The translations under genes were made by a program, and so were the position numbers. Under the pieces are notes generated by a model, which searched no databases, was not told the DNA's origin, and saw nothing but the letters and a program-made list of their open reading frames with translations. Below, one piece after another: positions 11,415 through 61,977 of a stretch of DNA of 64,000 nucleotides (position 1 is its first letter; each line of letters opens with the position of its first letter). Source of the DNA: Escherichia coli (lineage in GTDB: Bacteria; Pseudomonadota; Gammaproteobacteria; Enterobacterales; Enterobacteriaceae); the NCBI RefSeq assembly GCF_046105845.1, contig NZ_CP151004.1, one strand, 5' to 3'.

Positions 11415-11598
11415 AGTGGCTCATTCACCGACTTATGTCAGCCCCTTCGGGACGTGCTACATAAAATTCGAATGACGCACAACAAGGTGCCTGCCGTCCA
11501 ACTTCTGATATCAGCGTAGCTATATCAATCATCGGGCGAAACGTCGAGTTAGGCACCGCCTTATTCCATAACAAAGCCGGGTAATTCCCGGCTTTGTT
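11415..11598 (+). ncRNA. glmY: Small RNA GlmY (activator of the GlmZ/glmS pathway)
   Basis: Sequence beginning agtggctcattcaccgacttatgtcagccccttcggg matches my recollection of GlmY; about 184 nt; ends in hairpin aaagccgggtaattcccggcttt plus a U-rich tail; lies upstream of glrK with a sigma54 promoter and GlrR-type sites. Confidence 0.8.
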
Positions 11599-40793: not shown

Positions 40794-41033
40794 TTTAACC
40801 GTCCTGTTTCGTGTTGCATCTGCGTTGACTGCACATACTCACTCTGGTCACTTACTTATGTAAGCTCCCGGAGATTCGTAAGTTTGTCAACTTGCTGAAA
40901 CCCGAAACAGTTAGGTTAAAGATAACAAGATATTAGAATCAGGCCGGGGCGTATCGCGCTCCGTAAACACGGTCGTACATCCAGCCGGTAGCCTGGTTCC
41001 TTGCATTGAGTGATGTACGGAGTTTATAGAGCA

Positions 41034-46029: not shown

Positions 46030-46245
46030 TTTCCGCGTCATGCTTCACGCCGCAGATGCGTTGGCTGCGCTCGTTCACCCCAGTCACATAGTTATCTATG
46101 CTCCTGGGGCTTCACTCACTTGCCGCGTGATTCGGCCTTTTGGCCTCACCCCTCCGGGGCCAGCGCAAGCGCTGTTCAAAACGCAATGCGTTTTGTCCTG
46201 CAACGCGAATCATTTAGCGGAAAAATCCTGGGGCTGCCAACTGGC
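46030..46245 (-). repeat. ERIC (IRU) element
   Basis: The reverse complement of 46040-46130 reads GTGAAGCCCCAGGAGCATAGATAACTATGTGACTGGGGTGAACGAGCGCAGCCAACGCATCTGCGGCGTGAAGCAT, a close match to the ERIC consensus (GTGAATCCCCAGGAGCTTACATAAGTAAGTGACTGGGGTGAGCG...) as I recall it; abuts the iscX stop. Confidence 0.65.
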
Positions 46246-47650: not shown

Positions 47651-47675
47651 GAACGTTGAATGAATTGTGGTTCTT

Positions 47676-48452
47676 ATGTCCGAAACAAAAAACGAACTTG
47701 AAGATCTGCTGAAAAAAGCAGCAATCGAACCGGCGCACCGCCCGGCCTTTTTCCGTACTCTACTGGAATCCACCGTCTGGGTGCCGGGTACGGCGGCGCA
47801 GGGCGAGGCTGTGGTTGAAGATAGCGCGCTTGATTTACAGCACTGGGAAAAAGAAGACGGCACCAGCGTCATTCCTTTTTTTACCTCGTTAGAAGCACTT
47901 CAACAGGCGGTTGAAGACGAACAGGCATTTGTCGTAATGCCCGTTCGCACATTGTTTGAGATGACCCTTGGCGAAACGCTCTTCCTTAATGCCAAACTGC
48001 CAACCGGTAAAGAATTTATGCCGCGTGAAATCAGTTTGTTGATTGGTGAAGAAGGAAATCCGCTGAGCAGCCAGGAAGTACTGGAGGGCGGTGAATCGCT
48101 GATATTATCGGAAGTCGCAGAGCCACCAGCACAAATGATTGATTCTCTCACCACCTTATTTAAAACTATTAAGCCGGTGAAGCGTGCTTTTATTTGTTCA
48201 ATTAAAGAGAACGAAGAGGCACAGCCTAATTTACTTATTGGCATTGAAGCCGATGGTGATATCGAAGAAATTATTCAGGCGGCGGGAAGTGTAGCGACCG
48301 ATACATTACCTGGCGATGAACCCATCGATATTTGTCAAGTGAAAAAAGGGGAAAAAGGAATTAGCCACTTTATTACCGAACATATTGTGCCATTCTATGA
48401 ACGTCGCTGGGGTGGTTTTTTGCGTGACTTTAAACAGAACCGGATAATCTAA
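47676..48452 (+). CDS. sseB: SseB (enhanced serine sensitivity protein B)
   Basis: MSETKNELEDLLKKAAIEPAHRPAFFRTLLESTVWVPG... (258 aa); start at ATG 47676. Confidence 0.88.
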   Translation: MSETKNELEDLLKKAAIEPAHRPAFFRTLLESTVWVPGTAAQGEAVVEDSALDLQHWEKEDGTSVIPFFTSLEALQQAVEDEQAFVVMPVRTLFEMTLGETLFLNAKLPTGKEFMPREISLLIGEEGNPLSSQEVLEGGESLILSEVAEPPAQMIDSLTTLFKTIKPVKRAFICSIKENEEAQPNLLIGIEADGDIEEIIQAAGSVATDTLPGDEPIDICQVKKGEKGISHFITEHIVPFYERRWGGFLRDFKQNRII

Positions 48453-48454
48453 AA

Positions 48455-48754
48455 TATGCCGCCCCAAAGGGCGGCATTCGGGCTTACCTGCTGTTCTGAA
48501 GGTTGTTAACCACCAATAAATTGTTGCCGGAGAGATTCCGGTTATTATTTACCTCGGTTAACAGCGCACCAGAAACAATAAGTACGATACAAAAGCACCG
48601 TATCTTCATTGTGCGGTCCATGCGAAGACCGCATCACGACAGCACCACTGGCGATATTGCCGCGATAGCAAGCGCTGAGACGCGCGTGCCCTAACGGTCG
48701 CGGAACATCCTTTCCTTAAGCCAGCGCCCGCTTGCGAGACGGCGGAAAGGTCCG
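48455..48754 (-). ncRNA. ryfA: ryfA-like transcript (about 300 nt) carrying a small hydrophobic ORF; boundaries inferred
   Basis: On the minus strand there is a -10-like TATTAT at 48766-48761 and a terminator hairpin gccgccc-tttg-gggcggc followed by atatttt ending near 48455; length and location between sseB and sseA fit what I recall of RyfA. Confidence 0.5.
48484..48609 (-). CDS. Small hydrophobic protein (41 aa; TimP-like candidate type I toxin) within the ryfA-like transcript
   Basis: Minus-strand ORF MKIRCFCIVLIVSGALLTEVNNNRNLSGNNLLVVNNLQNSR then TAA; hydrophobic N-terminal helix; in-frame alternative ATG four codons upstream (48621, giving MDRTMKIR...); below the ORF-track length cutoff. 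Confidence 0.45.
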   Translation of the reverse strand: MKIRCFCIVLIVSGALLTEVNNNRNLSGNNLLVVNNLQNSR

Positions 48755-48797
48755 CAGTGGATAATACACTAACAGAACAATAATAACTCTCTTTTGC

Positions 48798-48826
48798 TTG
48801 ACAAAAAGAGGGTTACTGGCGAGTAT
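48798..48826 (+). promoter_or_regulatory. Sigma70-like promoter of sRNA-like unit A
   Basis: TTGACA (48798-48803), 17-bp spacer, GAGTAT (48821-48826); the same architecture is repeated 276 bp downstream. Confidence 0.4.
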
Positions 48827-48832
48827 TGTCTC

Positions 48833-48930
48833 CGCTGAGACGCGCTTGCATTACTACGGTAATACAACCTGCTGGAAAGGCCGCGAACCGGACCAGCAAC
48901 AAAAAACCGCCTGATTTTGGCGGTTTTTTG
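48833..48930 (+). ncRNA. Candidate sRNA, unit A (putative antitoxin RNA pairing with the ryfA-like mRNA)
   Basis: Predicted 5' end about 48833; ends at terminator aaaaaaccgcc-tgatttt-ggcggtttttt (48901-48929); its first 13 nt (CGCUGAGACGCGC) are perfectly complementary to the minus-strand transcript at 48673-48685. Confidence 0.45.
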
Positions 48931-49073
48931 TTGTTTAAAGAAAATGAAATTACACGTTTAAGTAATATCTTTTACCAGTTAGTATATTTTAATATTAAGC
49001 GGGATTTTTTTATATTTGTCTGAATTCGGACTGATAAGCCAAATGAATTCAAAATCTATCCTTTTTTATCTAC

Positions 49074-49102
49074 TTGACATCGTTGATGCATAAAGCGAGT
49101 AT
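49074..49102 (+). promoter_or_regulatory. Sigma70-like promoter of sRNA-like unit B
   Basis: TTGACA (49074-49079), 17-bp spacer, GAGTAT (49097-49102); paralogous to the unit A promoter. Confidence 0.4.
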
Positions 49103-49108
49103 TGAGTA

Positions 49109-49197
49109 GACGAGATACACTTGCAGTAATACAACCTGCTGGAAAGGCCGCGAACCAGACCAGCAATAAAAAAACCGCCAAATTCGGCGGTTTTTTT
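49109..49197 (+). ncRNA. Candidate sRNA, unit B (tandem paralog of unit A with a diverged 5' region)
   Basis: The body gtaatacaacctgctggaaaggccgcgaacc-gaccagcaa is nearly identical to unit A; terminator aaaaaaaccgcc-aaattc-ggcggttttttt (49165-49197) has a different loop but a conserved stem; this terminator is also positioned to serve the convergent sseA. Confidence 0.4.
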
Positions 49198-49213: not shown

Positions 49214-50059
49214 TTATTTCAATGGCTCAACCGGTAAATCTGCCCGTGCGCCCCATTCACTCCATGCGCCGTCGTACAGTTTCACGTTTGGCACATCCAG
49301 CGTCGCGAGTGCCAACAAAACCACGGCTGCCGTTACACCAGAGCCGCAGCTGACGATAATCGGTTTGTCATAGCTGACGCCGCGACCAAAAAATATCGCA
49401 TCCAGTTCATCGGTCGTTTTTAGTTCGCCTTCGCGCACCAGTTCCGTCCACGGAACGTTCAATGCACCGGGAATATGTCCGCGACGTAAACCTGGGCGAG
49501 GTTCATCAACTTCTGCGTTAAAACGTGCAGCCGGGCGGGCATCAATAATTTGCGCCGTATTTTCATGGCTTGCCAATAACACATCGGTGACTTTCACCAC
49601 GGCTTCAGGATTAAACGTGGCGTTAAACTCTCCTTCCGGCAGCTCTACTGCCCCTTCTTCTAACAGCAGATCATCACGCTGCCAGCCTGCAAGTCCACCC
49701 CCCAGAATCGACACTTTCTCTACACCAAAGGTGCGCAGCATCCACCATGCTCGTGGGGCTGAGAATAGATTACCTTCGTCATAGATAATCAGGTGCTTAT
49801 CCTGGTTAACGCCTAATTCACGCATCGCCACGGCGAACGTTTCCGGGCGCGGCAGCATGTGCGGAAGCGGGGAAGTGTGATCAGAAAGCGCTTCGATATC
49901 AAAAAATACTGCGCCGGGAATATGTCCATTCAGATACTCCTGAGCAACGTTACGATCTTCCTGTCCAGGCGACGCCATGCGGGCATCGATAATCTGAATT
50001 TCCGGGTCATCAATATGTTCGGCGAGCCAGTCGGCTCCTACAAACCATGTCGTGGACAT
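49214..50059 (-). CDS. sseA: 3-mercaptopyruvate sulfurtransferase (tandem rhodanese domains)
   Basis: MSTTWFVGADWLAEHIDDPEIQIIDARMASPGQEDRNVAQEYLNGHIPGAVFFD... (281 aa); active-site context SCGSGVTA; start at the internal ATG 50059, not the 334-aa ORF-track start. Confidence 0.9.
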   Translation of the reverse strand: MSTTWFVGADWLAEHIDDPEIQIIDARMASPGQEDRNVAQEYLNGHIPGAVFFDIEALSDHTSPLPHMLPRPETFAVAMRELGVNQDKHLIIYDEGNLFSAPRAWWMLRTFGVEKVSILGGGLAGWQRDDLLLEEGAVELPEGEFNATFNPEAVVKVTDVLLASHENTAQIIDARPAARFNAEVDEPRPGLRRGHIPGALNVPWTELVREGELKTTDELDAIFFGRGVSYDKPIIVSCGSGVTAAVVLLALATLDVPNVKLYDGAWSEWGARADLPVEPLK

Positions 50060-60748: not shown

Positions 60749-61867
60749 ATGCATAACCAGGCTCCAATTCAACGTAGAAAATCAACACGTATTTACGTTG
60801 GGAATGTGCCGATTGGCGATGGTGCTCCCATCGCCGTACAGTCCATGACCAATACGCGCACGACAGACGTCGAAGCAACGGTCAATCAAATCAAGGCGTT
60901 GGAACGTGTTGGCGCTGATATCGTCCGTGTCTCCGTACCGACGATGGACGCGGCAGAAGCGTTCAAACTCATCAAACAGCAGGTTAACGTGCCGCTGGTG
61001 GCTGACATCCATTTCGACTATCGCATTGCGCTGAAAGTAGCGGAATACGGCGTCGATTGTCTGCGTATTAACCCTGGCAATATCGGTAATGAAGAGCGTA
61101 TTCGCATGGTGGTTGACTGTGCGCGCGATAAAAACATTCCGATCCGTATTGGCGTTAACGCCGGATCGCTGGAAAAAGATCTGCAAGAAAAGTATGGCGA
61201 ACCGACGCCGCAGGCGTTGCTGGAATCCGCCATGCGTCATGTTGATCATCTCGATCGCCTGAACTTCGATCAGTTCAAAGTCAGCGTGAAAGCGTCAGAC
61301 GTCTTCCTCGCTGTTGAGTCTTATCGTTTGCTGGCAAAACAGATCGATCAGCCGCTGCATCTGGGGATCACCGAAGCGGGTGGTGCGCGCAGCGGGGCGG
61401 TTAAATCCGCCATTGGTTTAGGTCTGCTGCTGTCTGAAGGCATCGGCGACACGCTGCGCGTATCGCTGGCGGCCGATCCGGTCGAAGAGATCAAAGTCGG
61501 TTTCGATATTTTGAAATCGCTGCGTATCCGTTCGCGAGGGATCAACTTCATCGCCTGCCCGACCTGTTCGCGTCAGGAATTTGATGTTATCGGTACGGTT
61601 AACGCGCTGGAGCAACGCCTGGAAGATATCATCACTCCAATGGACGTTTCGATTATCGGCTGCGTGGTGAATGGCCCAGGTGAGGCGCTGGTTTCTACAC
61701 TCGGCGTCACCGGCGGCAACAAGAAAAGCGGCCTCTATGAAGATGGCGTGCGCAAAGACCGTCTGGACAACAACGATATGATCGACCAGCTGGAAGCACG
61801 CATTCGTGCGAAAGCCAGTCAGCTGGACGAAGCGCGTCGAATTGACGTTCAGCAGGTTGAAAAATAA
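60749..61867 (+). CDS. ispG: 4-hydroxy-3-methylbut-2-en-1-yl diphosphate synthase
   Basis: 372 aa [36 protein letters not shown]... with cluster cysteines (FIACPTCSR ... GCVVNGPGE). Confidence 0.96.
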
Positions 61868-61977
61868 TAACGTGATGGGAAGCGCCTCGCTTCCCGTGTA
61901 TGATTGAACCCGCATGGCTCCCGAAACATTGAGGGAAGCGTTGAGGGTTCATTTTTATATTCAGAAAGAGAATAAAC

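Follow-up and report, generated by a model that had tools for sequence, protein, structure and literature searches.

In Salmonella Typhimurium, timP (formerly ryfA) encodes a 38-amino-acid (38-aa) protein with an uncleaved Sec-type signal sequence that inserts into the inner membrane; its overexpression kills the cells and lets propidium iodide enter them, and an ATG-to-AAG mutant is harmless (PMC7667032). The divergently transcribed small RNA (sRNA) TimR blocks timP translation through an 18-nt pairing with the 5' untranslated region (5'UTR), as established with compensatory mutants and in vitro translation (PMC7667032). Here we analysed the corresponding locus of an Escherichia coli genome (RefSeq assembly GCF_046105845.1, contig NZ_CP151004.1), in a stretch of 64,000 nucleotides that we refer to throughout as the window and whose positions are counted from its first letter. 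A first-pass annotation, made from the letters alone, had noted a small hydrophobic open reading frame (ORF) on the minus strand between sseB and sseA and proposed it as a candidate type I toxin.

The Salmonella timP mRNA is not processed (PMC11228461, PMC7667032), and its Shine-Dalgarno sequence is locked in the fourth stem-loop (SL4) of the 5'UTR (PMC11228461). Translation requires a 7-bp pseudoknot between the upper part of SL1 and the loop of SL3; TimR binds the SL2 loop of the pseudoknot-bearing form and destabilises the pseudoknot (PMC11228461). A further element, site 2 (around C57-C58-G59), pairs either with site 1, in the inactive fold, or with the 5' flank of SL4, in the active fold in which the Shine-Dalgarno sequence is freed, and the pairing of site 2 with SL4 is backed by compensatory mutagenesis (PMC13000454). 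In Shigella dysenteriae, RyfA1 and RyfA2 are arranged in tandem with divergent RyfB1 and RyfB2, and a 5-nt variable region of the RyfA RNAs occurs in four versions (TGTTT, CGCGT, CCCCC and CACCC); RyfB1, whose pairing overlaps this region, lowers RyfA1 and not RyfA2, and the RyfA1/RyfB1 pairing, which involves 16 of 18 positions, is reported to be functional (PMC5333039).

Identification of the timPR module

Very likely, what lies here is timPR (ryfA/ryfB) in its Escherichia form, a member of this type I toxin-antitoxin family that works as its Salmonella counterpart does. The ORF-bearing minus strand is flanked by sseB (47667-48452, plus strand) and sseA (49214-50059, minus strand, placed by homology), and both the ORF list and the syntenic RefSeq and K-12 annotations place ryfA between these two genes, convergent with sseB. 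Positions 1-296 of the Rfam ryfA model (RF00126) span 48451-48755 of the minus strand untruncated, with 308.2 bits against a gathering threshold of 80, in agreement with the earlier naming of the locus as the sRNA ryfA. The peptide scores 79.7 bits against the NCBIfam profile NF040796 (toxic_TimP; cutoff 45), residues 1-39 lying on profile positions 1-39 of 40, and RefSeq annotates timP at the matching position in syntenic records, using the 41-aa start. The corresponding K-12 MG1655 genes are ryfA (b4440), timP (b4812, 41 aa) and timR (b4811). The homology to Salmonella TimP/TimR, to which the first-pass annotation had pointed, is thereby borne out.

K-12 ryfA (2653855-2654158) aligns base for base with 48755..48451, and these bounds differ by 1-4 nt from the transcript proposed initially (48455-48754). 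A TATTAT hexamer at 48766-48761 accounts for the -10-like element reported near 48766; it sits 6-8 nt upstream of the 5' end annotated in K-12 (48755) and of the Salmonella-equivalent transcription start (48753, placed from the position of the ORF at +145 in PMC7667032). A simple promoter scan chose another element (TTGTCA-16-TATTGT, 48804-48777). The terminator expected at about 48455 was located as a stem-loop at 48477-48456, and by K-12 coordinates the 3' end of the transcript overlaps the sseB stop codon by ~2 nt.

Of 5,426 complete E. coli genomes, 5,425 matched the region by megablast, on the chromosome every time, and an Rfam search of the 64-kb window found no second ryfA copy of the S. 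dysenteriae kind. The locus is thus already known, with timP carrying a RefSeq annotation in essentially every E. coli genome, and is nothing new in itself; as had been anticipated, novelty is limited to its state in this genome.

Conservation of the TimP ORF

The hydrophobic ORF is present as first described, with its ATG at 48609 and its stop at 48484 on the minus strand, and its mean Kyte-Doolittle hydropathy is 2.86 for residues 5-17 and -1.07 for residues 21-41. Alignment with Salmonella TimP, a comparison already suggested by the first-pass annotation, gave 49% identity for the S. enterica diarizonae protein (E 3e-12), concentrated in residues 1-17, where identity is near-complete. The ORF is intact (38-41 aa) in 21 of 21 homologues from four genera, free of any frameshift or stop that would speak against its conservation; the start codon is kept in all 21, and the gaps between genera are all in frame. 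Within Citrobacter and Salmonella taken together, ~40% of the nucleotide sites of the timP coding sequence vary.

An in-frame upstream ATG at 48621 would give a 45-aa form. The GGA Shine-Dalgarno sequence on the 3' side of SL4 overlaps this ATG, both Salmonella homologues have AAG in its place, and the NF040796 profile begins at residue 5 of the 45-aa form, i.e. at the second ATG. These observations suggest that translation probably starts at 48609, giving the 41-aa protein. That TimP is toxic in this strain we infer from the Salmonella homologue.

The 5'UTR switch

We aligned 16 distinct 5'UTRs (the window, nine E. coli alleles, E. whittamii, four Citrobacter, S. enterica diarizonae and Superficieibacter), numbering from +1 at 48755; Salmonella numbering equals window numbering minus 2, so that Salmonella C57-G125 is C59-G127 here. 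The alignment is gapless over +1..+150, and the published Salmonella mutations all map onto the expected bases in the window. In the published architecture 98.7% of the alignment cells are standard-paired, falling to 34-54% once the 3' partners are shifted by 1-3 columns, and compensatory, two-sided changes occur in four pairs. Minimum free energy (MFE) folding of the window 5'UTR recovers SL1-SL4.

The SL1 helix (6-12/41-47) is paired in 97.3% of cells, with compensatory changes at pairs 9-44 and 11-42, and all seven pairs of SL4 are invariant in the 16 sequences. Both the 7-bp pseudoknot helix (30-36/104-110) and the 6-bp helix between sites 2 and 4 (57-62/124-129) are 100% paired, the variation in the former being one-sided only. 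The latter two helices are nearly invariant, and their support is conservation, not covariation. By sequence, all the published elements of the Salmonella switch are present in the window: SL1-SL4, the pseudoknot and the pairing of site 2 with site 4. The coordinates of these and the other features are collected in Table 1.

Table 1 Features of the timPR locus in the window (+1 = 48755).
Feature	Position	Strand	Description	Basis
timP mRNA (= ryfA RNA)	48451..48755	-	~305 nt: 146-nt 5'UTR, 41-codon ORF, 3'UTR and terminator	Rfam, K-12 alignment
Probable timP -10, TATTAT	48761..48766	-	-35 weak	Read from sequence
SL1 (+6..+47)	48709..48750	-	Lower stem CCUUUCC/GGAAAGG; pseudoknot site 1 at 48720-48726	Rfam structure, MFE, pair counts
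Mini-ORF, ATG TTC CGC GAC CGT TAG (MFRDR, stop)	48691..48708	-	Preceded by AAGGAAAGG; contains site 2 (GACCGU, 48694-48699)	
SL2 (+68..+87)	48669..48688	-	TimR-binding site 48673-48689 (+67..+83), with the variable region CGCGT (5 nt)	
A-to-C change at +70	48686	-	Breaks SL2 pair 70-85; C.U mismatch with TimR	
SL3 (+90..+123)	48633..48666	-	Pseudoknot site 3 at 48646-48652	
SL4 (+124..+143)	48613..48632	-	GGA Shine-Dalgarno 48617-48619 sequestered; site 4 at 48627-48632	
In-frame upstream ATG (45-aa form)	48619..48621	-	Probably not the start	
timP ORF, 41 aa and stop	48484..48609	-	MKIRCFCIVLIVSGALLTEVNNNRNLSGNNLLVVNNLQNSR; hydrophobic Sec-signal-like N-terminus, Asn-rich polar tail	
timP intrinsic terminator	48456..48477	-	Stem 9 bp, 7 GC pairs, then ATTTTAGATT	Terminator scan
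Proximal TimR promoter	48798..48826	+	TTGACA 48798-48803, 17 nt, GAGTAT 48821-48826; back to back with the timP promoter region	By eye
TimR-type antitoxin sRNA (proximal)	48834..48929	+	~96 nt; 5' end GCUGAGACGCGC pairs with the SL2 loop; CGCGT-cognate	
Proximal TimR terminator	48901..48929	+	Bidirectional hairpin; inverted repeat with 15-nt arms, 100% complementary	sRNA fold
AT-rich spacer between TimR units	48887..49065	-	30% GC; Rfam IS128 RNA (RF00125), 166.7 bits against a gathering threshold of 80	
Second TimR-like sRNA gene, unit B (distal)	49109..49197	+	Seed GACGAGAUACACUUGC; abuts the end of sseA	

Pairing specificity of the TimR-type sRNAs

The first-pass annotation had pointed out a 13-nt site, beginning 5 nt past the stop of a mini-ORF in the 5'UTR, that is perfectly complementary to an adjacent sRNA-like unit A. 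This holds: 48673-48685 is identical to 48833-48845 on the same DNA strand, as a 13-nt direct repeat, and hence complementary to the plus-strand sRNA, with a chance expectation for such 13-mers of ~6.5e-5. The full complementarity extends to 16 of 17 positions (13, a C.U mismatch and 3), all 17 being paired in relatives; the contiguous helix is 12-13 bp here, 12 when counted from the inferred sRNA 5' end, and 16-17 bp in sister alleles. We placed this 5' end by homology to K-12 timR b4811. The promoter of the unit was missed by the simple scan, its -10 hexamer matching the consensus at 3 of 6 positions only. Its divergent orientation, promoter, terminator and 5'-end complementarity nevertheless identify unit A, at the sequence level, as a TimR-type antitoxin, and we call it the proximal TimR.

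Seed-only duplexes separated cognate pairs (-32 to -37 kcal/mol) from non-cognate pairs (-9 to -26 kcal/mol); we adopted these duplexes together with counts of contiguous helix, as RNAduplex on long segments gave inflated, gapped interactions. Among 17 Escherichia loci tabulated, there are three clean module types, CGCGT, TGTTT and CACCC, each with a matching TimR seed, and also chimeric arrangements with two units, such as O103:H2 strain 12009, which combines the two units of K-12 with a CGCGT timP. The timR annotated in K-12 is the distal unit, whose 5' end GCUGUGAAGCACCUGC matches the SL2 loop of K-12 (TGTTT); the unannotated K-12 proximal unit is 100% identical to unit A of the window and mismatched to K-12's own timP. 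Since the genome studied here carries the CGCGT specificity allele, pairing predicts that its cognate antitoxin is the proximal TimR and not the sseA-adjacent unit that is annotated as timR in K-12. The identity of timR is in this sense strain-dependent, and published phenotypes of E. coli timR deletions are to be read accordingly.

Unit B, the distal gene, has the same architecture as unit A, including its promoter (TTGACA 49074-49079, 17 nt, GAGTAT 49097-49102); the bodies and terminators of the two are 87% identical over 71 nt, and their 5' seeds differ. With the timP mRNA, unit B can form no helix longer than 6 bp, and its seed duplex reaches -12.5 kcal/mol; a target search limited to the 64-kb window gave nothing above chance level and nothing longer than 11 bp (with 2 G.U pairs) besides its own antisense strand. 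Its seed matches none of the timP alleles seen, making it an orphan; it occurs in 394 of the 5,426 complete E. coli genomes and is unannotated in the records listed. No Rfam family reached threshold for TimR, and we rejected the sub-threshold hits on the terminator hairpins (rimP leader, AgrB, RNAI, OrzO-P and Phe/Leu leaders) as chance.

By homology to Salmonella, the timP mRNA would be made more or less constitutively and remain unprocessed. In the inactive fold, site 1 would pair with site 2 and the Shine-Dalgarno sequence would stay locked in SL4; in the active fold, the pseudoknot would form and site 2 would open SL4. TimR would bind the active form through SL2, destabilise the pseudoknot and block initiation, so that TimP would accumulate only when TimR declines, and overproduced TimP would enter the inner membrane and render it leaky.

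Substitutions specific to this genome

The window carries the CGCGT allele, the commonest version, plus one rare substitution at 48686, on account of which it alone of the 16 aligned sequences has a non-standard 70-85 pair. The stability of SL2 is -13.1 kcal/mol with this change compared with -17.3 kcal/mol, and that of the TimR seed duplex -32.1 compared with -36.3 kcal/mol. None of the 5,426 complete E. coli genomes has this base (71-mer covering +31..+101, best identity 98.6%). The draft assembly GCA_044249515.1, 99.98% identical over 5 kb and with an identical TimP, carries it too, for which reason we regard the change as real. TimP itself has Asn for Ser at residue 25 (S25N, 48536), within the variable C-terminal half. 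Compared with other E. coli, the window shows 98.8% identity over 20 kb, and its ryfA segment reaches at best 99.4% among complete genomes.

The 48686 change weakens, and probably does not abolish, SL2 and TimR pairing. Since SL2, though weakened, keeps a greater stability than its natural counterparts in K-12 (-10.9 kcal/mol) and O157 (-9.2 kcal/mol), we expect little effect.

Alternative readings of the locus

The first-pass annotation had likened the 5-codon mini-ORF to the leader or standby control of tisB/istR-1 and zorO/orzO, in which case it would be a translated element governing access to the toxin ORF under sRNA control; we now regard this as highly improbable. The mini-ORF itself exists as described (ATG at 48708, stop at 48691, AAGGAAAGG upstream), and Escherichia, S. 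diarizonae and Superficieibacter all keep its ATG. Nor was this the upstream ORF whose start-codon mutation left Salmonella translation unaffected (AUG at +53; PMC11228461): the ATG mutated there (CC-ATG-GCC) lies 5 nt further downstream and is absent from the window, which reads CCGCGACC at that place. The supposedly strong Shine-Dalgarno sequence, however, is present as a string but base-paired, as AAGGAAAGG forms the 3' side of the lower stem of SL1 (partner CCUUUCC, +6..+12) in which compensatory changes occur; it runs straight into the ATG with zero spacer, and in the MFE fold the bases flanking the ATG are buried in SL1. The ATG is missing from all four Citrobacter homologues with an intact 5'UTR and ORF (GGACATT, GGTCATT, GGTCGTT), and the length is not conserved either: only in the CGCGT allele does a TAG end the frame after 5 codons, the TGTTT and CACCC alleles and S. 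diarizonae having 24. Codons 4-5 (GAC CGU) coincide with RNA site 2, whose pairing with SL4 was proven by compensatory mutations (PMC13000454); processing, which exposes the standby sites of tisB and zorO, does not occur in the timP mRNA (PMC11228461); and deletion of SL2 leaves translation in vitro unaffected (PMC11228461). Before the mini-ORF is read as a leader peptide, SL1 and site 2 must be accounted for.

A number of points weigh against a translated toxin module in Escherichia. No TimP production or toxicity has been reported for any E. coli or Shigella allele (PMC5333039, PMC8205139, PMC13188913). In S. dysenteriae, overproduction of RyfA1 altered ompC mRNA and did not slow growth, and a 5'UTR-gfp fusion, which used a different predicted start (30-aa ORF) and a heterologous promoter, gave no protein (PMC5333039). 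A ryfA with its ORF destroyed still complements all ryfA mutant phenotypes of uropathogenic E. coli CFT073 (PMC8205139), and deletion of timR in avian pathogenic E. coli had little effect (PMC13188913). Within our data, the C-terminal half of TimP is poorly conserved, and the RNA structure far better; the ratio of nonsynonymous to synonymous polymorphism (pN/pS), calculated for three frames on three data sets (Escherichia alone, the first 21 codons across genera, and full-length Citrobacter plus Salmonella), is 0.53-0.73 in the TimP frame and 0.44-0.78 in the others and does not separate the frames, the overlapping RNA structure confounding the test, which we let count in neither direction; and a +2-frame ORF (MRSSHGPHNEDTV..., 27-35 aa) is likewise open in 20 of 21 homologues, for which reason open-frame persistence alone is weak evidence. 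Such findings would suit an RyfA that is mainly or only a regulatory RNA, sponging TimR and other RNAs and binding ProQ, with an ORF that is not meaningfully translated in Escherichia. We think this rather unlikely: the start codon, the hydrophobic N-terminus and the open frame persist in 21 of 21 homologues, with only in-frame gaps despite the variability of the coding sequence, an invariant SL4 that sequesters the Shine-Dalgarno sequence and a translation-activating switch make sense only if translation matters, and the Salmonella homologue is translated and toxic (PMC7667032). A regulatory function is also partly compatible with the timPR module, in the form of a dual-function RNA. It is less probable still that the module is decaying in this lineage, with 48686 and S25N marking a hypomorphic or inactive toxin gene kept only as RNA. 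Neither substitution occurs in the closest complete E. coli genomes, the one at 48686 costs ~4 kcal/mol each in SL2 and the TimR duplex, mutations that destabilise SL2 came up as loss-of-function in a Salmonella screen (PMC13000454), and whole-module inactivation by deletion has recurred in other lineages. Yet the ORF, start codon, Shine-Dalgarno sequence, SL4, pseudoknot, site 2-4 pairing, terminator and both promoters are intact, the weakened SL2 exceeds the natural ones of K-12 and O157 in stability, residue 25 is in a variable part of the protein, and 12-13 bp plus 3 resembles the functional 16-of-18 pairing of RyfA1 with RyfB1 (PMC5333039).

Allele distribution and module rearrangements

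Counting the same 71-mer in the 5,426 complete E. coli genomes gave 2,992 occurrences of CGCGT, 1,975 of TGTTT and 527 of CACCC. The CGCGT-type 5'UTR is thus found in 55% of these genomes, with isolates from sinks, farm environments and faeces among them, a majority that sits badly with the 2017 report confining ryfA1-like variants to enteropathogens (PMC5333039). In alleles of the O157 and TGTTT types (loci L093, L091 and L003), we observed by eye a second upstream ATG (CC-ATG-[AG]CC) at the equivalent of 48702, whose frame is open through SL2-SL4 and whose TGA overlaps the timP start (A-ATG-A) in a classic coupling arrangement that is absent from the window allele.

Among 80 Enterobacteriaceae species loci, an essentially complete sseB-adjacent ryfA, with or without a 5' deletion, was found in Escherichia, Citrobacter, Salmonella and Superficieibacter only; this synteny-based search sampled no Serratia, Rahnella or Hafnia, genera reported elsewhere. 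Partial copies are a 3'-end fragment in Citrobacter sedlakii and another, truncated by the contig end, in E. albertii. A precise deletion of ~160 nt (equivalent to 48673-48849) recurs in three unrelated lineages, S. enterica arizonae, Citrobacter amalonaticus and E. coli 06-00048. It spans from the TimR seed to the timP target site, which form a 17-nt direct repeat in the DNA, takes away SL1 and the two promoters, and leaves the TimR body joined to SL2-timP; judging by what is lost, the deletion presumably inactivates the entire module.

K-12 MG1655 contains, at 2653690-2653800 and 2653456-2653560, a second TimR-like gene that is CGCGT-cognate, and beside the annotated timR a remnant of a second ryfA promoter with the first ~25 nt of its transcript. 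This arrangement suggests that the module was once duplicated in tandem, as in S. dysenteriae, and later underwent recombination. E. coli P276M has yet another seed variant (…GCAGTAATGTGCTGTCTCGAAGCGG…) in place of the proximal TimR-like unit; its ryfA match ends at model position 263, its sseB is annotated as a frameshifted pseudogene, and it has no annotated timP coding sequence.

We tentatively raise the possibility, which we hold to be somewhat doubtful, that the sseB-sseA region is a "specificity cassette" system, in which varied TimR-like genes, each with its promoter and terminator intact, accompany a single timP whose SL2 loop matches just one of them. The cognate antitoxin would then be proximal in some strains (the window, O103:H2) and distal in others (K-12), with orphan paralogues persisting (unit B, the K-12 proximal unit). 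If so, orphan TimRs could hit other targets, buffer incoming timP alleles or donate sequence for specificity-switching recombination. The variable region and the species-level co-variation of seed and site are published; in the papers on timPR/ryfA that we consulted, we found no description of orphan units, of chimeric arrangements or of the deletion that recurs. The residual interest of the locus lies in its strain-dependent cognate antitoxin, its orphan TimR paralogues and the recurrent deletion between seed and target repeats.

Other RNA elements in the window

The IS128 RNA match in the spacer overlaps the proximal TimR terminator. Elsewhere, OhsC (RF02495, 70.5 bits against 50), the antitoxin of the shoB-ohsC type I system, matches 2169-2233 on the minus strand and marks a second type I toxin-antitoxin locus in the window. 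Further Rfam matches above gathering are GlmY (11415-11562, plus strand), the iscRS stability element (40923-41032, plus strand) and SroE (61867-61958, plus strand), and a marginal match to AaHKsRNA22 (46131-46203, minus strand; 45.3 against 39.8 bits) lies inside or upstream of pepB.

Comparison with known systems

With tisB/istR-1 and zorO/orzO, the locus shares a divergent, non-overlapping sRNA whose pairing site in the toxin 5'UTR lies far upstream of a sequestered ribosome-binding site, and a small hydrophobic inner-membrane toxin. In those systems, 5' processing exposes a single-stranded standby site that the antitoxin then occupies, whereas Salmonella timP is unprocessed and is activated by a pseudoknot switch, with no standby site or leader ORF. 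That class, to which hok/mok also belongs, is marked by a conserved, accessible upstream ORF or a single-stranded standby site, and the mini-ORF is neither; the Rfam OrzO-P model scored 25 bits in the window, below its gathering threshold of 60.

S. dysenteriae RyfA/RyfB belong to the same family, and the CGCGT version was described there. The two differ in that S. dysenteriae has two complete tandem modules, while the window has one full ryfA and two TimR-like genes; the S. dysenteriae study, in addition, concluded that no protein is made and linked GC-rich variants to enteropathogens (PMC5333039), a link at odds with the 55% share of the CGCGT type among complete E. coli genomes. With K-12 ryfA/timP/timR, the window shares 94% identity over the transcript, two TimR-like genes with an IS128-like spacer and a 100% identical proximal unit. 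In K-12, however, the TGTTT site matches the distal, annotated TimR and leaves the proximal one an orphan, whereas in the window the CGCGT site matches the proximal TimR and the distal unit has a third seed; the window also lacks the remnant of a second ryfA 5' end.

The locus differs from Salmonella Typhimurium timP/TimR in several details: TimP has 41 aa instead of 38, an unrelated Asn-rich tail and 49% identity overall; the sequences of the SL2 loop and the TimR seed differ; the pairing is 12-13 bp contiguous (16/17) instead of 18; the upstream ORF tested in Salmonella is absent, with another 5-codon ORF 5 nt upstream; and there is a second, orphan TimR-like gene. The two have in common the synteny with sseB, the divergent sRNA, an mRNA of ~300 nt with the ORF at ~+145, SL1-SL4, the pseudoknot and the site 2-4 pairing at an offset of 2 nt, a TimR 5' end that pairs with the SL2 loop, and a nearly identical TimP N-terminus (MKIRCFC.VL.VSG.L).

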